Shown here: positions 13,714 through 40,799 of the stretch, one piece after another
Layout of the letters: each line of letters opens with the position of its first letter
Position numbering within the stretch: the stretch's first letter is position 1
Source: a virus
Taxonomy: Duplodnaviria > Heunggongvirae > Uroviricota > Caudoviricetes
Direction: 5' to 3' (one strand)
IMG/VR virus record: IMGVR_UViG_2698536687_000008
Location: 1-40,799 of that record
Length of the DNA stretch: 40,799 bases
Made by a program: the position numbers and the translations under genes
Notes under the pieces: model-generated
The model's database searches: none
The model's input: the letters and a program-made list of their open reading frames with translations, nothing else
What the model was told of the DNA's origin: nothing

Positions 13714-15131
13714 TACTCAATCCTTATCTGGCAGCCAGACAGAGTGACAGGTGACTTCGTGATAACGCGCAATTTGAAACCGACATTTTTCCTGATGCGC
13801 CCTACTCGCTTCCACAAAACGCGTTTGTCGTAAACGAACGGTTCATTCTGCTCAATCATCTGCTCACGCCCGTAATTGATTCCGTCAGTGGTTGCAGAGA
13901 GAAAAAGGCGGTCGGCGTACTGCGCAACGCCAGTTGAAGATTCAACTTCAAGGTCGAAAACTCTGGCGTTATCTGCTTTGAACAACGGAGTAAACAGCAG
14001 GTGTTCCTGTTGCTTGTCGTACTGGCTGCTGATATCGAACTGCAATTTCCCGGTCACGGACTCCAGCTTATCGCCGCACGTTATCTGATTGCCTTCATAA
14101 ATGAAGTCGATAGCGCGGTACACATCGTCATACAGGCCTGTTTTCAACACACACCATTGCGGACCATTGGCGCTTGAAGATGCGTCGTACACGAGAACAT
14201 GGCGTGGAAGGTGGATAATCAGCAACTCATGAGCATCAAAGCGCAACGATTCCATCACGCCATCAGCCAGTTCATCAGCAGTGTAGGAGCGGAGGATTTT
14301 CTCAATGCTCGCGCTGGCAATTGGTGACACCTGACCAGAGCCGATGATATACACAGACGGCGCACCCGTTGCCGGATTGCTGATGAACGCATACGAATCA
14401 GCAAACGGCGTTTTGCAGTAAGTCCCGGCAATGCCTTTCTGCACCATCAGCGATGGCTGTGCGACATACAAAGCAGCACCAACGGTGGTTGCACCAGTCA
14501 GGGAGAAATATTCAATCGTTGATGAACCAAAGCATACGATGAAGTCTCGCCATGTTCCGATGCCGATGATGCCGTCAGGCTGCGATTCTGCGCGATATTG
14601 TGCGCTGTAGCGGTCAGGGTGTGTTTCGTCTTCAAGGTCAGTGATAAACCATGAATCAGTACCGTCTTTTGACCACGCATAACGCCCACGTAAGCGCGTA
14701 ATGTCACGAACCGAACCTAGCTCATACTGAGTGAATCCGCTATCTGTAGGCCAGTTTGAGACGATTTTAACCGCGCCATCATAGCGGTATTCGACCAGTT
14801 GACCATTAACGCCTACCGCCTGTGATGTCCGCCCATGCGCCATTGATACGCGACCACTTCCGGCAACATCACCGACTTCGCTTTCGCCTTTGTAGAGCTT
14901 GCCGCCACACACACGATAGACAGCATTCTGCGCCATGTTGTACTCGACGCCTCGAGATACACCGTTCACATCAGAACGTTTGGCAATGCCCGGGAATGAG
15001 CGAAGATATCCGCTGCTGTTCAGGATTTCTTTGGGTGTAGCCAACATATTCGCTGGCAGATAGTCGATATAGTCGGCGTTTCGGAAATCTTTGCCGACAC
15101 CTTTCATAAGCGGAAGTTGCTGAATCGGCAT
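13713..15131 (-). CDS. Tail accessory factor, P22 gp10-like
   Basis: 472 aa, same length as P22 gp10, syntenic between gp4 and gp26. Confidence 0.85.
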
Positions 15132-15608
15132 TATTCGCTCCCGTTATCGCAAGGATCCTTTCGGTGGAAGTAATTCCAACCGTTCCACTTCGCCAACTGG
15201 TTACCGCTACCAACAGGCATGCGGTTTGGATAACCGGACTTACATTTAGCGGCTTTTGCTCTGTCCATTGCAGACAGTTTGACGAGTCGCTCTTTCCCGT
15301 ATCTGGCAGTAGTTATAAGTTTTGCAGAAGCTTCCAGCGCATAATCTGGAGCAATGCGGCAGGCAAGGTTGAAAATGACGGCATTGATAGCGTTATTTGA
15401 TAAACCGTGCTCATCTCCCGGATCCGGAGCGACATCTGCATCAGCAAAAATGTAGCCAACGTTGATACCAGGTGACGCATCACCGCCAAGCCATTCAGCC
15501 ATCATCATTTCAAGGTCGTTGACGCCGTCTTCCATAGACTGCGGTTCGACATCGGTTAACGTGGCATTTGATGCCACACCGAGCTTACGTAATGCCGCAA
15601 GAACTAAA

Positions 15609-15631
<23 letters not shown>
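15131..15631 (-). CDS. Head completion/tail accessory protein, P22 gp4-like
   Basis: From Met at 15631: [33 protein letters not shown]... matches the P22 gp4 N-terminus; the ORF-track extension (SQSQ repeats) is upstream non-coding frame. Confidence 0.85.
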
Positions 15632-15875
<244 letters not shown>

Positions 15876-15919
15876 GCTTGTCTCCAGATAAAAAAGGGAG
15901 CCGAAGCTCCCTCTGGTTA

Positions 15920-17215
15920 TCACGCGGTCTGGTTAGGCAGACCAACACCAATTGCCTCTGGTCGTACAGCACATGCTGAATACCACACAGCAATACGGCA
16001 CTTACCAGACAGAGTGTTGATATCACCCTGCGTTGCGAAGATGCCGTTAACACCAATACCAGGAATGCTGAAGGAAGACGTTTTCATGCCAGCAAACAGT
16101 TCATGGGTTACCGGGATCGGCTGAGACAGCAGACGGATTGAGTCATCAGCCCAGAACACGTTAGCGGTGGTTGTTGCCACGTTCAGAACGTTTACCGGAG
16201 TGGTATCAGCAAGAGAGGTGTTTACGTTAGCGTAAGCCTTCTCTTCTTTTGTCAGTGACGCGTCATCAAGCGCAATCGGCTTCGGCGTGATTTCGATGTG
16301 AGTACCATCGATCACACGGGTGATTGAGAAAGTAGCATCATCAGTCAGCACGTTCTTCGCCATCTGAGACAGGAATTTCACACCAGTGAAGCTGATTTTG
16401 TCGCCGCGCTTAAATCCGGTGGTGGAGGATACGGTCACCGTTGCAACACGGTTGTCGACGTTCTCTTTGTTACCATCGGTATCAAGAGTGTATGCCTGCG
16501 GCTTAAACTTCTGCGCACCAGAAACAGTTACACCAGTAGCGGTTGACTTGGTAACTGCCGGAAGTTTCGGTGAGCGAAGAATTTCATCAAAGCCAGCAAT
16601 CTGACGCTGAATAGTACCGTTGCGATACGCTTCTTCAGGAACGCGCCCGAAGATGTCACCATCTACAAGATTGCGGCCTGCTTTGCGGTAATCGTCAGGG
16701 TTCAGGAAGTAACTGATACCCATGTCGCGGTTGAGTTCGCGGGAGAACATCAGTCGCTCTGCATCAGACACAAAATCCCAGCCAGACAGGCCAGTAGATG
16801 GACCAATTGCGCGGGTATCGTGAACAACAAGCGAGCCCATTTCAGTTGCCTGTTTGGCAATCGCTGACTCAATGTTATTCGCCAGTTTTTTGGCGGATGC
16901 CTGGATGCGGCGACGGTAAGAACGCTCATCACGCAGGTCATCTGCACGAAGCTCGAAGAAATCGTTATCCGGATCGCCCATGTTGCATTTCACGGACAGC
17001 TCCAGAATCCCGGTTGCGTTGCCAGTTAAATCCCAGCCAGTCTGAGTTGGCGCTTCCTGCTCAACAGGCATCCACACGGTGTTGCTTGAACGTTGCATGG
17101 ATTCTGCCGGAGGGGTGTATTTTGTCACTTTGGACGCCATTGGCGTCAGGTTCTGGACGGTTTCGATGATTTCATCCAGAGCATACGTGACCAGTTGACC
17201 TTCATTTAATGCCAT
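15920..17215 (-). CDS. Major capsid (coat) protein, P22 gp5-like (HK97 fold)
   Basis: 431 aa, [20 protein letters not shown]...GVGLPNQTA, colinear with P22 coat protein from memory. Confidence 0.95.
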
Positions 17216-31755: not shown

Positions 31756-32635
31756 CGTGTTCACCCTCACGAACTTTCAGGTAGGTATTGTCGTTAAGCA
31801 GGAAATCAAATCCCTTTTTGTGCCAGACGGTTCCGCGTTGATGGTTTGGACGCTCTTCGAACATCCATCGGCAATTTTCGCCTACGTAGCTCAAATAATT
31901 TCTCCAGTCCTGCATCGTGAACCCATGCCCGTCAAGCTGGCGGGTTATCACTCCGGCTTTGCGCCAGAACGTTCGGATCTGGTTTTTACGCTTGTCATTC
32001 AGTGCGCGGATTCTTGGCGCTTCAGGAAGGATTTCGTGGTAAGCATCGACAACATCCTGACAGCTAACGGAAGGTTTTTTCTTGTCAGACTTTTTGTCTG
32101 CTGTGGCACTCTCTAATACGTCAGTATTAGAGATATTATTTATATTATTGTTTATGGACAACCGTTGGACAACCGTTGGACAATCTCCGCTGAGAGCCGC
32201 TCCATTACTGGTGTTTTCGTTGGACAACCGTTGGACAACCGTTGGACAATTTTTTGCCTGAAAATCGTCATATTTAACGATTGTAAACAGGCTAAATTTC
32301 TTCCCCATCGAGCAAATATTAAGCATACCTTTCGACTCAAAAGTCCGTAATAAGCTCCGAACTTTGTTGTCGGGGATGAATGTTTCTCTGACCAGCGACG
32401 GGCGTCCAGTTATCATCTGACCGCGATCAACAGTTATCGGACCGATATCCGTATTGACGACAGTAGATTCGTGATTAGCCTTGAGGATTAAGTGAAGCCA
32501 AAGATGTACTGCCTGAGAGTCCTTATAGAGCCTGCTGTCCATAAACTGGCGGTGTATAGAGACATACCCCATACTGGATGCCTCCTGATGTTGTACAGGG
32601 TTATGCCTGTAATCAGCTAACTTAACGACGCCCAT
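31745..32635 (-). CDS. Replication initiator protein (lambda O / P22 gp18-like) containing the origin
   Basis: 296 aa; internal iterons translate as repeated CPTVVQRLS; position between cII and helicase. Confidence 0.8.
   Translation of the reverse strand: MGVVKLADYRHNPVQHQEASSMGYVSIHRQFMDSRLYKDSQAVHLWLHLILKANHESTVVNTDIGPITVDRGQMITGRPSLVRETFIPDNKVRSLLRTFESKGMLNICSMGKKFSLFTIVKYDDFQAKNCPTVVQRLSNENTSNGAALSGDCPTVVQRLSINNNINNISNTDVLESATADKKSDKKKPSVSCQDVVDAYHEILPEAPRIRALNDKRKNQIRTFWRKAGVITRQLDGHGFTMQDWRNYLSYVGENCRWMFEERPNHQRGTVWHKKGFDFLLNDNTYLKVREGEHDDR
32163..32254. repeat. Origin iterons: six near-identical copies of TTGGACAACCG in two clusters, with adjacent AT-rich tract (32140-32162)
   Basis: ATGGACAACCGTTGGACAACCGTTGGACAA ... 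CGTTGGACAACCGTTGGACAACCGTTGGACAA, next to ATATTATTTATATTATTGTTTAT. Confidence 0.75.
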
Positions 32636-32859: not shown

Positions 32860-33096
32860 TGTCAGCATTCTGGCTACTTTCTTAGCCAGTTCCGCCAACT
32901 CCTCGTCTTCAACACCCCATTCAAGAACAGCCAGAAGCATTCCCATTTTTGGGATGAAGCTATCTTTCCATCGAGAAATTTGCGATTCATTAATCCCTAA
33001 CGCGTCGGCAACCTTTCGCTGACCACGTACAGCAATTCGATTCAGGATGTTGCTTGTAATTGCATTCGCTTTCTTGCGAGTACTTGTAAGTTCCAT
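32818..33096 (-). CDS. cII: Transcriptional activator CII (P22 C1-like)
   Basis: From ATG 33096: MELTSTRKKANAITSNILNRIAVRGQRKVADALGINESQISRWK...MLLAVLEWGV; strong similarity to lambda CII / P22 C1. Confidence 0.85.
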   Translation of the reverse strand: MELTSTRKKANAITSNILNRIAVRGQRKVADALGINESQISRWKDSFIPKMGMLLAVLEWGVEDEELAELAKKVARMLTKEKAPKNGEFFEA

Positions 33097-38385: not shown

Positions 38386-38553
38386 ATGAGAGGACTTGCA
38401 TACAATCCCGGCATTCTTCCGGCAGAAATGATTATTCGCCAACGCGTAAAGCCAATGCCATCGAGAGAGGAATTGCTTAAGAGAAATTCTTTTCCATCAG
38501 TGAATAAAAACAAATATCTGAATGCGATGTTGCGCAAAGGAGGCAACCAGTGA
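38386..38553 (+). CDS. Hypothetical small protein (55 aa)
   Basis: ATG preceded by AAGAGGAA; stop overlaps the next start; not in ORF track. Confidence 0.35.
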
Positions 38554-38804
38554 GTAATTCAGCACGACTACAGCTTGGTTTTTCACCGCTATCAAAAACT
38601 ATCATGCTGGCAAAAATGCGCGATGTTGAAGGTGGACGTATGCGCGTTGGCAATGATCCAGGTCGTGATGTTACCAATGAGGCTGCTCAATTGGTGTGGC
38701 GACTGGTCATGGCTGAAGGTGGTGAGATCGCGTGGGAGCTGGAAGATGGTTCTCGCATGGTGTTGAAGGCAGAAAAGCAGGAGGCAACCAGTGAGCGAAA
38801 TTAA
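38550..38804 (+). CDS. Hypothetical protein (84 aa, GTG start)
   Basis: AGGAGG RBS followed by GTG; translationally coupled to flanking ORFs. Confidence 0.45.
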
Positions 38805-39937: not shown

Positions 39938-40215
39938 TGGACTCCTTCGCGAAATATACGATTATTGACTGGATAGCATTCCTTCAGGTTTTGCTCATCT
40001 GGTTTTATATGGCTTACAGGAGTGGACAGTGGATTGTCAGTGTAGCCTGTAGCAAGGGATGGCGTTGGTGGAACCGGAAGAATAAAAAAGCACTGGCATT
40101 GGATTCGTTTTACGAAGCATTCAATCTTAACAGCCTTCAGCCTGGTTCTGTCATTGTAGTCACCACTCAAAGCGGCATGACCATTCAGATTCATAAACCA
40201 AAAGAGGAAAAATGA
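39937..40215 (+). CDS. Hypothetical protein (92 aa)
   Basis: ATG 39937 after AGGAGG; hydrophobic N-terminal segment. Confidence 0.45.
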   Translation: MDSFAKYTIIDWIAFLQVLLIWFYMAYRSGQWIVSVACSKGWRWWNRKNKKALALDSFYEAFNLNSLQPGSVIVVTTQSGMTIQIHKPKEEK

Positions 40216-40373: not shown

Positions 40374-40541
40374 ATGCACTTCCGAGTCACAGGTGAATGG
40401 AATGGAGAACCATTCAACAGAGTTATCGAAGCCGAGAACATCAACGACTGCTACGACCACTGGATGCTGTGGGCGCAGATAGCACATGCAGACGTAACCA
40501 ATATTCGAATTGAAGAACTGAAAGAACACCAAGCCGCCTGA
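40374..40541 (+). CDS. Hypothetical small protein (55 aa), last ORF before the terminator
   Basis: RBS GGAG 7 nt upstream of ATG; stop overlaps terminator stem. Confidence 0.35.
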   Translation: MHFRVTGEWNGEPFNRVIEAENINDCYDHWMLWAQIAHADVTNIRIEELKEHQAA

Positions 40542-40554
40542 TGGCGGTTTTTTA
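40533..40554 (+). terminator. Rho-independent terminator at the end of the pL operon
   Basis: GCCGCC-TGAT-GGCGG(T) stem-loop followed by TTTTTTATT. Confidence 0.6.
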
Positions 40555-40563
40555 TTGCCTGAT

Positions 40564-40579
40564 TTGCAGGTTCGATTCC
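40564..40579. repeat. 16-bp exact direct copy of the argW T-arm segment TTGCAGGTTCGATTCC (also at 1054-1069)
   Basis: Exact 16/16 match to tRNA positions 1054-1069; flanks on both sides are not tRNA-like; lies 19 bp upstream of torI ATG. Confidence 0.6.
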
Positions 40580-40598
40580 CTATTCGGAGATAGCACTC

Positions 40599-40799
40599 AT
40601 GCAACACGAACTACAACCTGATTCACTGGTTGATTTGAAATTCATCATGGCTGATACTGGCTTTGGTAAAACCTTCATCTACGACCGAATTAAGTCCGGC
40701 GACCTGCCTAAAGCCAAAGTTATCCACGGTCGAGCAAGATGGTTATATCGTGACCATTGTGAATTCAAAAATAAGCTCTTAAGCCGCGCTAATGGGTAA
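40599..40799 (+). CDS. torI: Excisionase / recombination directionality factor TorI
   Basis: 66 aa, MQHELQPDSLVDLKFIMADTGFGKTFIYDRIKSGDLPKAKV..., recognised as KplE1 TorI; stop codon is the last three bases of the window. Confidence 0.9.
   Translation: MQHELQPDSLVDLKFIMADTGFGKTFIYDRIKSGDLPKAKVIHGRARWLYRDHCEFKNKLLSRANG

Follow-up and report, generated by a model that had tools for sequence, protein, structure and literature searches.

The closest described systems are the recombination modules that KplE1 (CPS-53), HK620, Sf6 and Kapi1 carry at the argW tRNA gene. KplE1 is bordered by a duplicated core of 16 nt, CTGCAGGGGACACCAT (PMC2951348). Its TorI sites have been defined by mutagenesis of the pentamers GTTCG, GATCG and GTCCG, and TorI represses the integrase promoter PintS through them; the hexamers of PintS and a TAAA arm motif have been described as well, and the promoter of torI itself, PtorI, has been referred to as non-characterized (PMC2951348). 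Kapi1 is flanked by a 17-bp duplication of the tRNA 3' end, with attP located between int and xis, and precise deletion of these 17 bp abolishes its integration at the site (0/24 versus 19/20 colonies; PMC8787464).

The stretch of DNA analysed here, called the window, comprises positions 1 to 40,799 of the IMG/VR record IMGVR_UViG_2698536687_000008. The prophage in it is an element of the Kapi1/HK620/Sf6/KplE1 type, with the module order torI - P arm - core - P' arm - intS, and its closest characterised phage is Kapi1 (98.6% identical over the last 500 nt). The integrase is of the same type, TorI is identical, the P' arm carries I1 to I5 as well as PintS, and in sister loci torI is followed by the P arm and core; within the module itself no difference from these systems is seen. 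The core and the position of attR were already known; what is new here is a 13-nt segment of the argW T-arm as a conserved, sometimes duplicated element of the torI leader. PMC2951348, PMC3509656 and PMC8787464 make no mention of a T-arm copy upstream of torI. The features on which the following account relies are these.

1009-1083, + strand: argW, tRNA-Arg(CCT), the integration target (ARAGORN; the sole tRNA found)
1054-1069, + strand: left copy of the 16-mer, in the argW T-arm, adjoining the crossover block on its left (B-side of the attB/attL core region)
1069-1084, + strand: attL copy of the published 16-nt core CTGCAGGGGACACCAT (core sequence from PMC2951348)
1088-1178, + strand: TorI sites of attL, I1 1088-1095, I2 1108-1115, I3 1151-1158, I4 1161-1168 and I5 1171-1178, with the pentamers GTTCG, GTCCG and GATCG (PMC2951348, mapped onto the window)
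1179-1244, + strand: PintS (-35 TTGACA 1179-1184, -10 TAAAAA 1203-1208), overlapping IntS arm-type sites of the GGGTAAAA type; the site placement is putative
1245-2402, + strand: intS, integrase of 385 aa (377/385 identical to HK620 Int, 382/385 to CUS-3 Int)
40531-40553, + strand: intrinsic-terminator-like hairpin (stem 40531-40550) and T-run closing the early-left operon, with a homologue directly ahead of xis in lambda
40554-40563, + strand: 10-nt spacer ATTGCCTGAT between the T-run and the 16-mer
40564-40579, + strand: right copy of the 16-mer; its inner 13 nt, 40567-40579, are CAGGTTCGATTCC, the conserved T-arm box of the torI leader
40586-40589, + strand: Shine-Dalgarno GGAG of torI (read from the sequence; kept across lineages)
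40599-40799, + strand: torI, recombination directionality factor (RDF) of 66 aa (translation, RefSeq annotation)

Two copies of an argW T-arm segment

A preliminary description of this DNA had reported one 16-bp segment both in argW and just ahead of torI, and a search of the window bears this out: TTGCAGGTTCGATTCC has exactly two exact matches, at 1054-1069 and 40564-40579, both on the + strand, and no additional copy appears in the window when up to two mismatches are allowed. In a shuffle control the mean was 0.08 matches, with two or more in 0 of 100 shuffles, and the whole window has just one other exact dispersed direct repeat of at least 16 nt. The same description had held a chance match to be very unlikely. 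This stands for the pairing at issue, as a repeat that joins the integration-site tRNA to the far prophage end is not a product of chance, but it does not extend to exact 16-mer pairs at large, of which about 0.2 per orientation are expected anywhere in 40.8 kb by our own arithmetic, so that some such pair is not rare.

From the ARAGORN placement of argW, the left copy consists of the 5' strand of the T-stem, the T-loop and the first two bases of the 3' strand. The right copy starts 10 nt past the terminator T-run and ends 19 nt ahead of the torI ATG (40599), and it runs on into CTATTC (CTATTCGGAG); the tRNA 3' end, TGCAGGG and a partner half-site are all absent there. It had been described as lying between phage-like sequences, a terminator on its left and the torI ribosome-binding site on its right, and this proved correct. 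The spacer and the first 4 nt of the right copy together form TTGC-N5-TTGC. The same 16-mer is found upstream of torI in K-12, HK620 and Sf6, and TorI of the window has the same sequence, at 100% identity, as the TorI that RefSeq annotates in close relatives among E. coli.

Position of the attachment core

The 16-mer and the published core overlap by a single base, C1069, and the two repeats tile argW exactly, 1054-1069 and 1069-1084. In the window CTGCAGGGGACACCA is present in single copy, at 1069-1083 inside argW, and the final base of the window is the last base of the torI stop codon. The second copy of the core is seen where sister loci continue. In an E. coli locus that is 98.8% identical (L004), torI is followed by 73 nt, CTGCAGGGGACACCAT and the dsdC flank, and K-12 has the same order past torI, with RefSeq calling the core copy there the pseudogene pawZ and ending CPS-53 at it. 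The virion-derived genome of HK620 reads hkaC (torI), 73 nt, core, a P' arm nearly identical to 1085-1244 of the window, and int; its annotated attP core is downstream of hkaC, between hkaC and int, and the 16-mer is upstream of hkaC. As the attR core lies 73 nt past the torI stop codon, at which the window ends, it starts 74 nt beyond the window, and the attP of this prophage would be expected to read torI - 73 nt - CTGCAGGGGACACCAT - TTATCAGTTCGC. The crossover block itself can be narrowed to TGCAGGGGACA (1070-1080), the identity common to all modules and flanks, because identity at attR sometimes stops at GGGGACA and the base before TGCAGG differs in other genera.

Empty sites give the same picture. 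A synthetic empty site, made by fusing argW of the window, up to 1084, with the DNA that follows the attR core on the right, is matched at 100% in one piece, and 912 of 5426 complete E. coli genomes match it at a coverage of at least 80%; in the eight genomes listed among these matches, tRNA-Arg adjoins dsdC and torI is missing. Recombination at the 16-mer would have left torI within argW, an arrangement seen at no site. With regard to published experiments, excision in vitro works with an attR of 135 bp whose inner primer, CTCTTAAGCCGCGCCAATGG, lies at the torI 3' end, so that the 16-mer is not included, and the 220-bp attL substrate that recombines in vitro starts 5 nt upstream of the left 16-mer, at primer GCTAATTGCAGGTTCGATTCC (PMC3509656).

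Sister loci, the gene order in HK620 virions, empty sites and published experiments thus establish that the right 16-mer is neither attR nor the core of an attachment site, and that torI is inside the mobile unit. None of the marks of an attR core is seen at this copy, which has phage DNA on both sides and is separated from the bacterial flank by torI and 73 nt of P arm. Among the explanations offered earlier, a core at the 3' extremity of argW with attR beyond torI, outside the window, is confirmed by the sister loci, K-12, HK620, the empty sites and Kapi1, and the core of KplE1, which had been placed at the argW 3' terminus, agrees with the published CTGCAGGGGACACCAT. A functional attR at the right copy, with torI belonging to an older resident element, is refuted by the empty argW-dsdC sites that lack torI, by the contiguity of torI, core and int in virion genomes, and by the sufficiency of the 135-bp attR. 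Within the module, the 16-mer resembles pawZ in that both are short tRNA-identical segments at the far prophage end, displaced from the gene; pawZ, however, is a real attR copy abutting bacterial DNA, whereas the 16-mer is flanked by phage sequence and corresponds to a different part of the tRNA.

One reference record is at odds with this assignment. In CP000711, the record of CUS-3, TTGCAGGTTCGATTCC is annotated as 'attL core' at bases 1-16 and as 'attR core' at 40192-40207, where the record ends, an annotation that would make the 16-mer the functional core and leave torI outside the mobile unit. The left end of the CUS-3 record, however, runs on directly into CTGCAGGGGACACCAT and a P' arm of the HK620 type, and in genomes such as UTI89, where the CUS-3 right end recurs at 100% identity, torI comes next and then dsdC. 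Taken together, these continuations mean that CP000711 was cut at the 16-mer and torI omitted, so that the core labelling of CUS-3 is an annotation error. With the empty sites, the virion gene order, the in vitro excision data (PMC3509656) and the loss of integration on deletion of attB (PMC8787464) also pointing against it, and with the predicted torI-interrupted argW not seen, crossover at the 16-mer has next to no chance of being right. The longest direct repeat can mislead the delimitation of prophages here, as in a reference record that ends at the 16-mer without its excisionase, and many IMG/VR prophage contigs, like this window, end at the torI stop codon and miss attR.

Conservation of the T-arm box ahead of torI

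Relatives of TorI with 60-88% identity were taken from species-representative genomes and viral contigs, and the sample covers Enterobacter, Citrobacter, Serratia, Pantoea, Edwardsiella, Dryocola, Tatumella, Rouxiella, Arsenophonus, Proteus and further prophages. In most full-length relatives GGGTAAAA stands right after the torI stop codon, followed about 70 nt on by (T)TCGATGT-n-TGCAGGGGAC(A/G)CCA. Upstream of the gene, CAGGTTCGATTCC with at most two mismatches is present in 10 of 19 TorI protein clusters, among them Enterobacter, Citrobacter, Serratia, Pantoea and Edwardsiella, down to an identity of 71%, and in these ten it is located at -29 to -45 from the ATG, with its end 18-25 nt before the ATG. 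The other nine clusters are devoid of the box, and in Dryocola the terminator leads directly into the ribosome-binding site, without it; since it is missing this often, the box is not essential.

Where present, the box is far better kept than its surroundings. In a box-anchored alignment of 12 lineages, the columns CA-GGTTCGATT(C/T)C are at least 90% conserved, except for the C/T position (~70%), against about 40-50% for the flanks, namely the 20 nt to the left and the stretch from the box to the Shine-Dalgarno. The left TTG of the E. coli 16-mer varies elsewhere (TTC, TGA, TTA, TCA, ACG and others), so the constrained unit is 13 nt long and identity at 16 of 16 bases is specific to the E. coli lineage. 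In L217, L218, L220, L290 and L175 the box occurs in tandem, at a repeat interval of 13-16 nt.

A similar contrast is seen over shorter evolutionary distances. All of 80 E. coli-type IMG/VR loci with identical TorI have the box. Upstream of the torI module they carry one of three unrelated modules, each having a terminator hairpin of its own, and the junction is at the T-run; from TTTTT(A/C)TT(G/A)CCTGAT on, the 16-mer, the leader and torI are common to the 80 loci, which places the 16-mer at the 5' edge of the torI module. The sum of minor alleles over these loci is 5 for the 16-mer, compared with 29 for 10 spacer positions and 232 for 66 third codon positions of torI, and polymorphism of the box is about tenfold lower than that of the third codon positions. 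That the box is held in place in diverged TorI modules while its flanks are scrambled indicates that selection keeps it, and the comparison as a whole points to purifying selection on a role that is probably non-essential.

These patterns bear on the origin of the right copy. It had been proposed that this copy is the leftover of a longer tRNA-identity block split by torI, and in its neutral form this explanation posits an ancestral attP with a contiguous block, TTGCAGGTTCGATTCC followed by TGCAGGGGACACCAT, into which a segment of about 293 bp with torI and the P arm was inserted or recombined, leaving the upstream piece without function. The exact tiling of argW by two repeats with a one-base overlap is what such a split would give; identity begins at TTGCAGG, where the T-stem has its outer edge, which fits an identity block of the T-loop type, all 16 bases are kept in the E. 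coli lineage, and the loss of the box from 9 of 19 clusters suits a relic as well. Decay, on the other hand, is uneven, as the left TTG varies by genus and CAGGTTCGATT(C/T)C stays fixed amid diverged flanks, and a polymorphism about ten times below that of neighbouring neutral-like positions and duplication of the box in several lineages also count against a functionless remnant. In addition, diverged modules retain TTCGAT directly left of the core (TTCGATGTATGCAGGGG), so that torI has a T-loop-like stretch on either side, a feature not expected from a simple split.

The ancestral arrangement was also looked for among 2.9 million viral contigs. A contiguous phage-borne block, with the 16-mer running into TGCAGGGGACACCA, gave 83 matches, all of them ordinary argW genes of other genera with G, not A, before the block; no match was obtained for the phage-side flank and 16-mer with G or T as the next base, and no viral contig had this flank and the 16-mer running into TGCAGG. 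Origin from the tRNA and a present function are compatible with each other. A tRNA origin of the right copy is plausible, and the putative simple split does not account for present conservation; a relic pure and simple is rather unlikely, and the earlier proposal may hold for the origin while leaving the conservation of 13 of the 16 bases and the second T-loop-like stretch unexplained.

Candidate roles of the box

The box lies between the early-left terminator and the torI ribosome-binding site, where lambda has the cII-activated promoter pI. The terminator is common to lambda and the torI module; lambda diverges just past a TTGC corresponding in the alignment to bases 1 to 4 of the 16-mer, and its cII box and xis start follow. 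The two leaders are alike in this homologous position, after a shared terminator and before an excisionase gene, and in having a TTGC repeat, and the lambda pI cII box is TTGCGTGTAATTGC. By analogy, the 16-mer could be part of a pI-type promoter that drives the integrase for lysogeny. The HK620 record does have a 'promoter, phage integration' at the equivalent of 40554-40592, with a cII site at the equivalent of 40555-40567, the Sf6 record carries the same annotation by homology, and a torI homologue in Arsenophonus (L186) is preceded by the lambda-like TTGCGTGTAATTG.

The TTGC repeats, however, are not the conserved part of the torI leader. Their spacing is N5 here, as opposed to the canonical N6 of lambda pI; a TTGC-N6-TTGC is present in this phage at 33050, presumably near pRE. 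The first TTGC is broken by a G-to-A change (ATTACC) in K-12 and in 17 of the 80 loci, and the second becomes TTCC, TTTC, TGAC or TTAC in other genera, in which the downstream 13-mer is conserved instead. A scan for sigma-70 promoters around the box found no promoter-like site and no sigma-70-like -10. The pI transcript of lambda has its start within xis and so yields no Xis, while a cII-dependent promoter ahead of torI would co-express the excision factor with the integrase and thus work against integration; the authors of the HK620 annotation were reportedly unaware that hkaC is an RDF. A cII-activated promoter at this place is therefore regarded as very unlikely.

The box could also act as RNA, mimicking a T-arm in the leader of the torI mRNA and so influencing its processing, stability or translation. 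Transcription of torI from the early-left operon would indeed place the box in the RNA leader, and leaders of the Edwardsiella type can pair GACAGG with CCTGTC around a loop. The E. coli version, however, is without the 3' half of this stem, RNAalifold on 11 lineages gave no conserved pair, and Rfam returned no family near threshold (best 24 bits against a gathering score of 55), which makes a role at the RNA level extremely unlikely.

What the comparative data support best is the remaining proposal of the preliminary description, an internal binding site that may regulate torI. With the 16-mer internal to the element and not an att core, the box is in this reading, to which we assign a probability of about one half, most likely a DNA site for IntS and/or TorI that would act on torI expression or on the architecture of the P arm. 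Because these 13 nt match the B-side half of the attB core region in every base and include GTTCG, they are likely to be bound by recombination proteins of the module. Sited in the torI 5' leader, between the early-left terminator and the torI RBS, a box occupied by IntS and/or TorI would tune torI expression from read-through transcription; alternatively, binding at the box might link the distant P arm to the intasome. For the chemistry of excision the box is dispensable. Whether prophages of the KplE1 type excise is decided by torI expression. Inhibition of Rho probably induces excision of KplE1, and Rho-dependent termination has been reported upstream of torI. A 13-nt box between terminator and RBS is a concrete and cheap target for mutagenesis in the torI control region.

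As a TorI site, the box has GTTCG, the TorI pentamer, at 40570-40574, and in two lineages (L205 and L209) it reads TCAGTTCG...CCAGTCCG, the exact sequences of I1 and I2. Another pentamer, ATTCG, GTTCG or GTCCG, lies 12 nt downstream, with GTTCG or GTCCG there in many lineages. Scored with a matrix derived from I1 to I5, the E. coli box reaches 5.4 bits, compared with 7.6-11.9 for the known sites, and ranks 269th of 81,584 positions (top 0.33%). The pentamer spacing of 12 nt in the torI leader, versus 10 or 20 nt in attL, does not give the phased array of TorI sites. The conserved part of the box differs from the I-sites in extending 3' into ATTCC, where these are not conserved, and ATTCC lies outside the TorI 8-mer, which counts against TorI. 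The attL fragments used for TorI gel shifts include the identical T-arm, and the only sites reported in them are I1 to I5, all to the right of argW (PMC2951348), which likewise speaks against TorI.

As a core-type site for IntS, the 16-mer is identical to the argW segment that abuts the core on the left, which is what the sequence of a half-site calls for, and in matching the tRNA segment left of the crossover block the box is like an attB-type core (B) half-site of a heterobivalent tyrosine integrase, that of lambda being the example. It is unlike such a half-site in its setting, about 293 bp from the core across torI; neither a 7-bp overlap region nor an inverted partner half-site was found next to the right 16-mer, which is thus an orphan half-site. 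Integrases usually bind orphan half-sites weakly. A copy of the B-side half-site explains both the tRNA-type ATTCC, in place of the phage C-side ATGTA/ATGTC, and the retention of all 13 nt, and IntS, through its core-binding/catalytic part, is predicted to be a somewhat more likely binder than TorI. TorR boxes, IHF sites and IntS arm-type sites (GGGTAAAA) were also considered as identities of the box and dropped by eye, as there was no resemblance.

If IntS is the binder, a more specific arrangement can be imagined, in which torI stands between two tRNA-derived pieces, a mimic of the attB left half-site upstream of its RBS and the real core downstream. Integrase held at the arm site after torI might then also grip the half-site mimic and loop out or road-block torI, and the integration target would have been re-used as an operator that couples the supply of the RDF to occupancy by the integrase. 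This arrangement is quite unlikely as it stands; if it were true of other tRNA-inserted elements with RDF and integrase at opposite ends, it would amount to an unrecognised layer of control in the decision between lysogeny and excision.

For specialists in site-specific recombination, the box is a useful lead on torI control and a caution for att-site annotation, without being a surprise of kind. The re-use of a tRNA T-arm sequence inside the phage, away from the crossover, also bears on how such modules evolve around a fixed bacterial target. The sequence is not exclusive to this setting: among 120 sampled viral matches to the 14-mer CAGGTTCGATTCCC, 65 are torI leaders, and the others are tRNA genes and unrelated DNA.

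Annotated ends of the prophage and the attP region

In the CUS-3 record (CP000711.1), the 16-nt T-arm sequence shared by argW and the torI leader is labelled both as the attL core (1-16) and as the attR core (40192-40207), at which the record stops. As the record terminates at this 16-mer, it contains neither torI nor the P arm nor the true attR core, and in genomes carrying 100% copies of the right end of CUS-3, torI comes next, followed by dsdC. The copies used in the CUS-3 comparison lie as follows.

L001, 1762-1777: T-arm 16-mer
L169, 1-16: T-arm 16-mer

Among the 80 IMG/VR contigs with this torI, 29 end exactly at its stop codon (L092, L093 and L096, for example), as the window does (40797-40799). 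Boundary calling of prophages apparently trims the sequence after its last gene, whereby the 73-nt P arm and attR are lost. An annotated 46-codon ORF, present in the records of both HK620 (hkaB, L002 2799-2939) and Sf6 (gene 17, L003 3175-3315), begins within the 3' end of torI and extends over both the P arm and the core of attP; integration would split it in the prophage state, and it may be a mere annotation artefact.

For Stx-converting phages at argW, the Stx2a/Stx1 prophage records list a 'duplication due to insertion' of 48-53 nt, which covers most of argW and lies on the opposite strand. A different sublocation of the argW tRNA gene is therefore used by a second, unrelated integrase family.

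Sequences preceding the RDF gene

Around the terminator and the torI start (window 40494-40649), Rfam returned sub-threshold matches only, of which the terminator is probably the source:

STnc130 (- strand): 24 bits against 55
STnc420: 18 against 70
isrK: 13.5 against 50

Certain diverged torI leaders (L217, L218, L220, L290 and L175) contain two tandem T-arm boxes, the box being the inner 13 nt of the 16-mer. The repeated unit is ~16 nt (CAGGTTCGATTCCCGT / CAGGTTCGATTCCCAT), and in L217, L218 and L220 the two boxes are located about 45 and 29 nt upstream of the ATG. The leader of L175 has an additional degenerate copy, CTCGATTCAT. In Arsenophonus nasoniae (L186), the T-arm box is absent from the leader of the torI homologue, and in its place, about 20-50 nt before the gene, is TTGCGTGAGATTTGCGTGTAATTG, which closely resembles the lambda pI cII box TTGCGTGTAATTGC. 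The position preceding the RDF gene thus seems to be occupied by differing regulatory cassettes across lineages. In L308, a Citrobacter-type leader (terminator, CAGGTTCGATTCCCAAACCGGAG) is fused to an ORF with a different start (MRELRDDSL...), suggesting that the leader recombined with a divergent RDF gene exactly at the start codon.

L308, 1713-1726, - strand: T-arm box

TorI-site likenesses and repeats in the window

Directly 3' of the tRNA end, TorI site I1 with its surroundings (TCAGTTCGCTCCCAT, 1085-1100) resembles the T-arm box (CAGGTTCGATTCCCTAT, 40567-40583) in an alignment that permits two or three gaps of one base each; the T-arm may thus be the origin of the P' arm's own RDF sites. 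At 9.3 bits, GTAGTTCG scores high on the TorI-site matrix; this match is on the strand opposite to torI, just within its coding region and some 35 nt away from the T-arm box, and is not conserved in other genera. It and three sets of repeats are located as follows.

40607-40614, - strand: GTAGTTCG
32155-32261: 11-nt direct repeats in two clusters (TGGACAACCGT)
15679-15726: hexanucleotide run (TCTGGC)n
38538-38554 and 38779-38795: exact 17-nt direct repeat AGGAGGCAACCAGTGAG, spacing 241 nt

The 11-nt repeats look like replication-origin iterons within the replication-initiator gene region. On the - strand, the hexanucleotide run is read in two overlapping ORFs, as an N-terminal (SQ)8 in 15131-15736 and as (EP)7 close to the C-terminus in 15609-15923, and is possibly a slippage-prone tract. 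The 17-nt repeat looks like ribosome-binding-site and start regions repeated at neighbouring small early-left genes.
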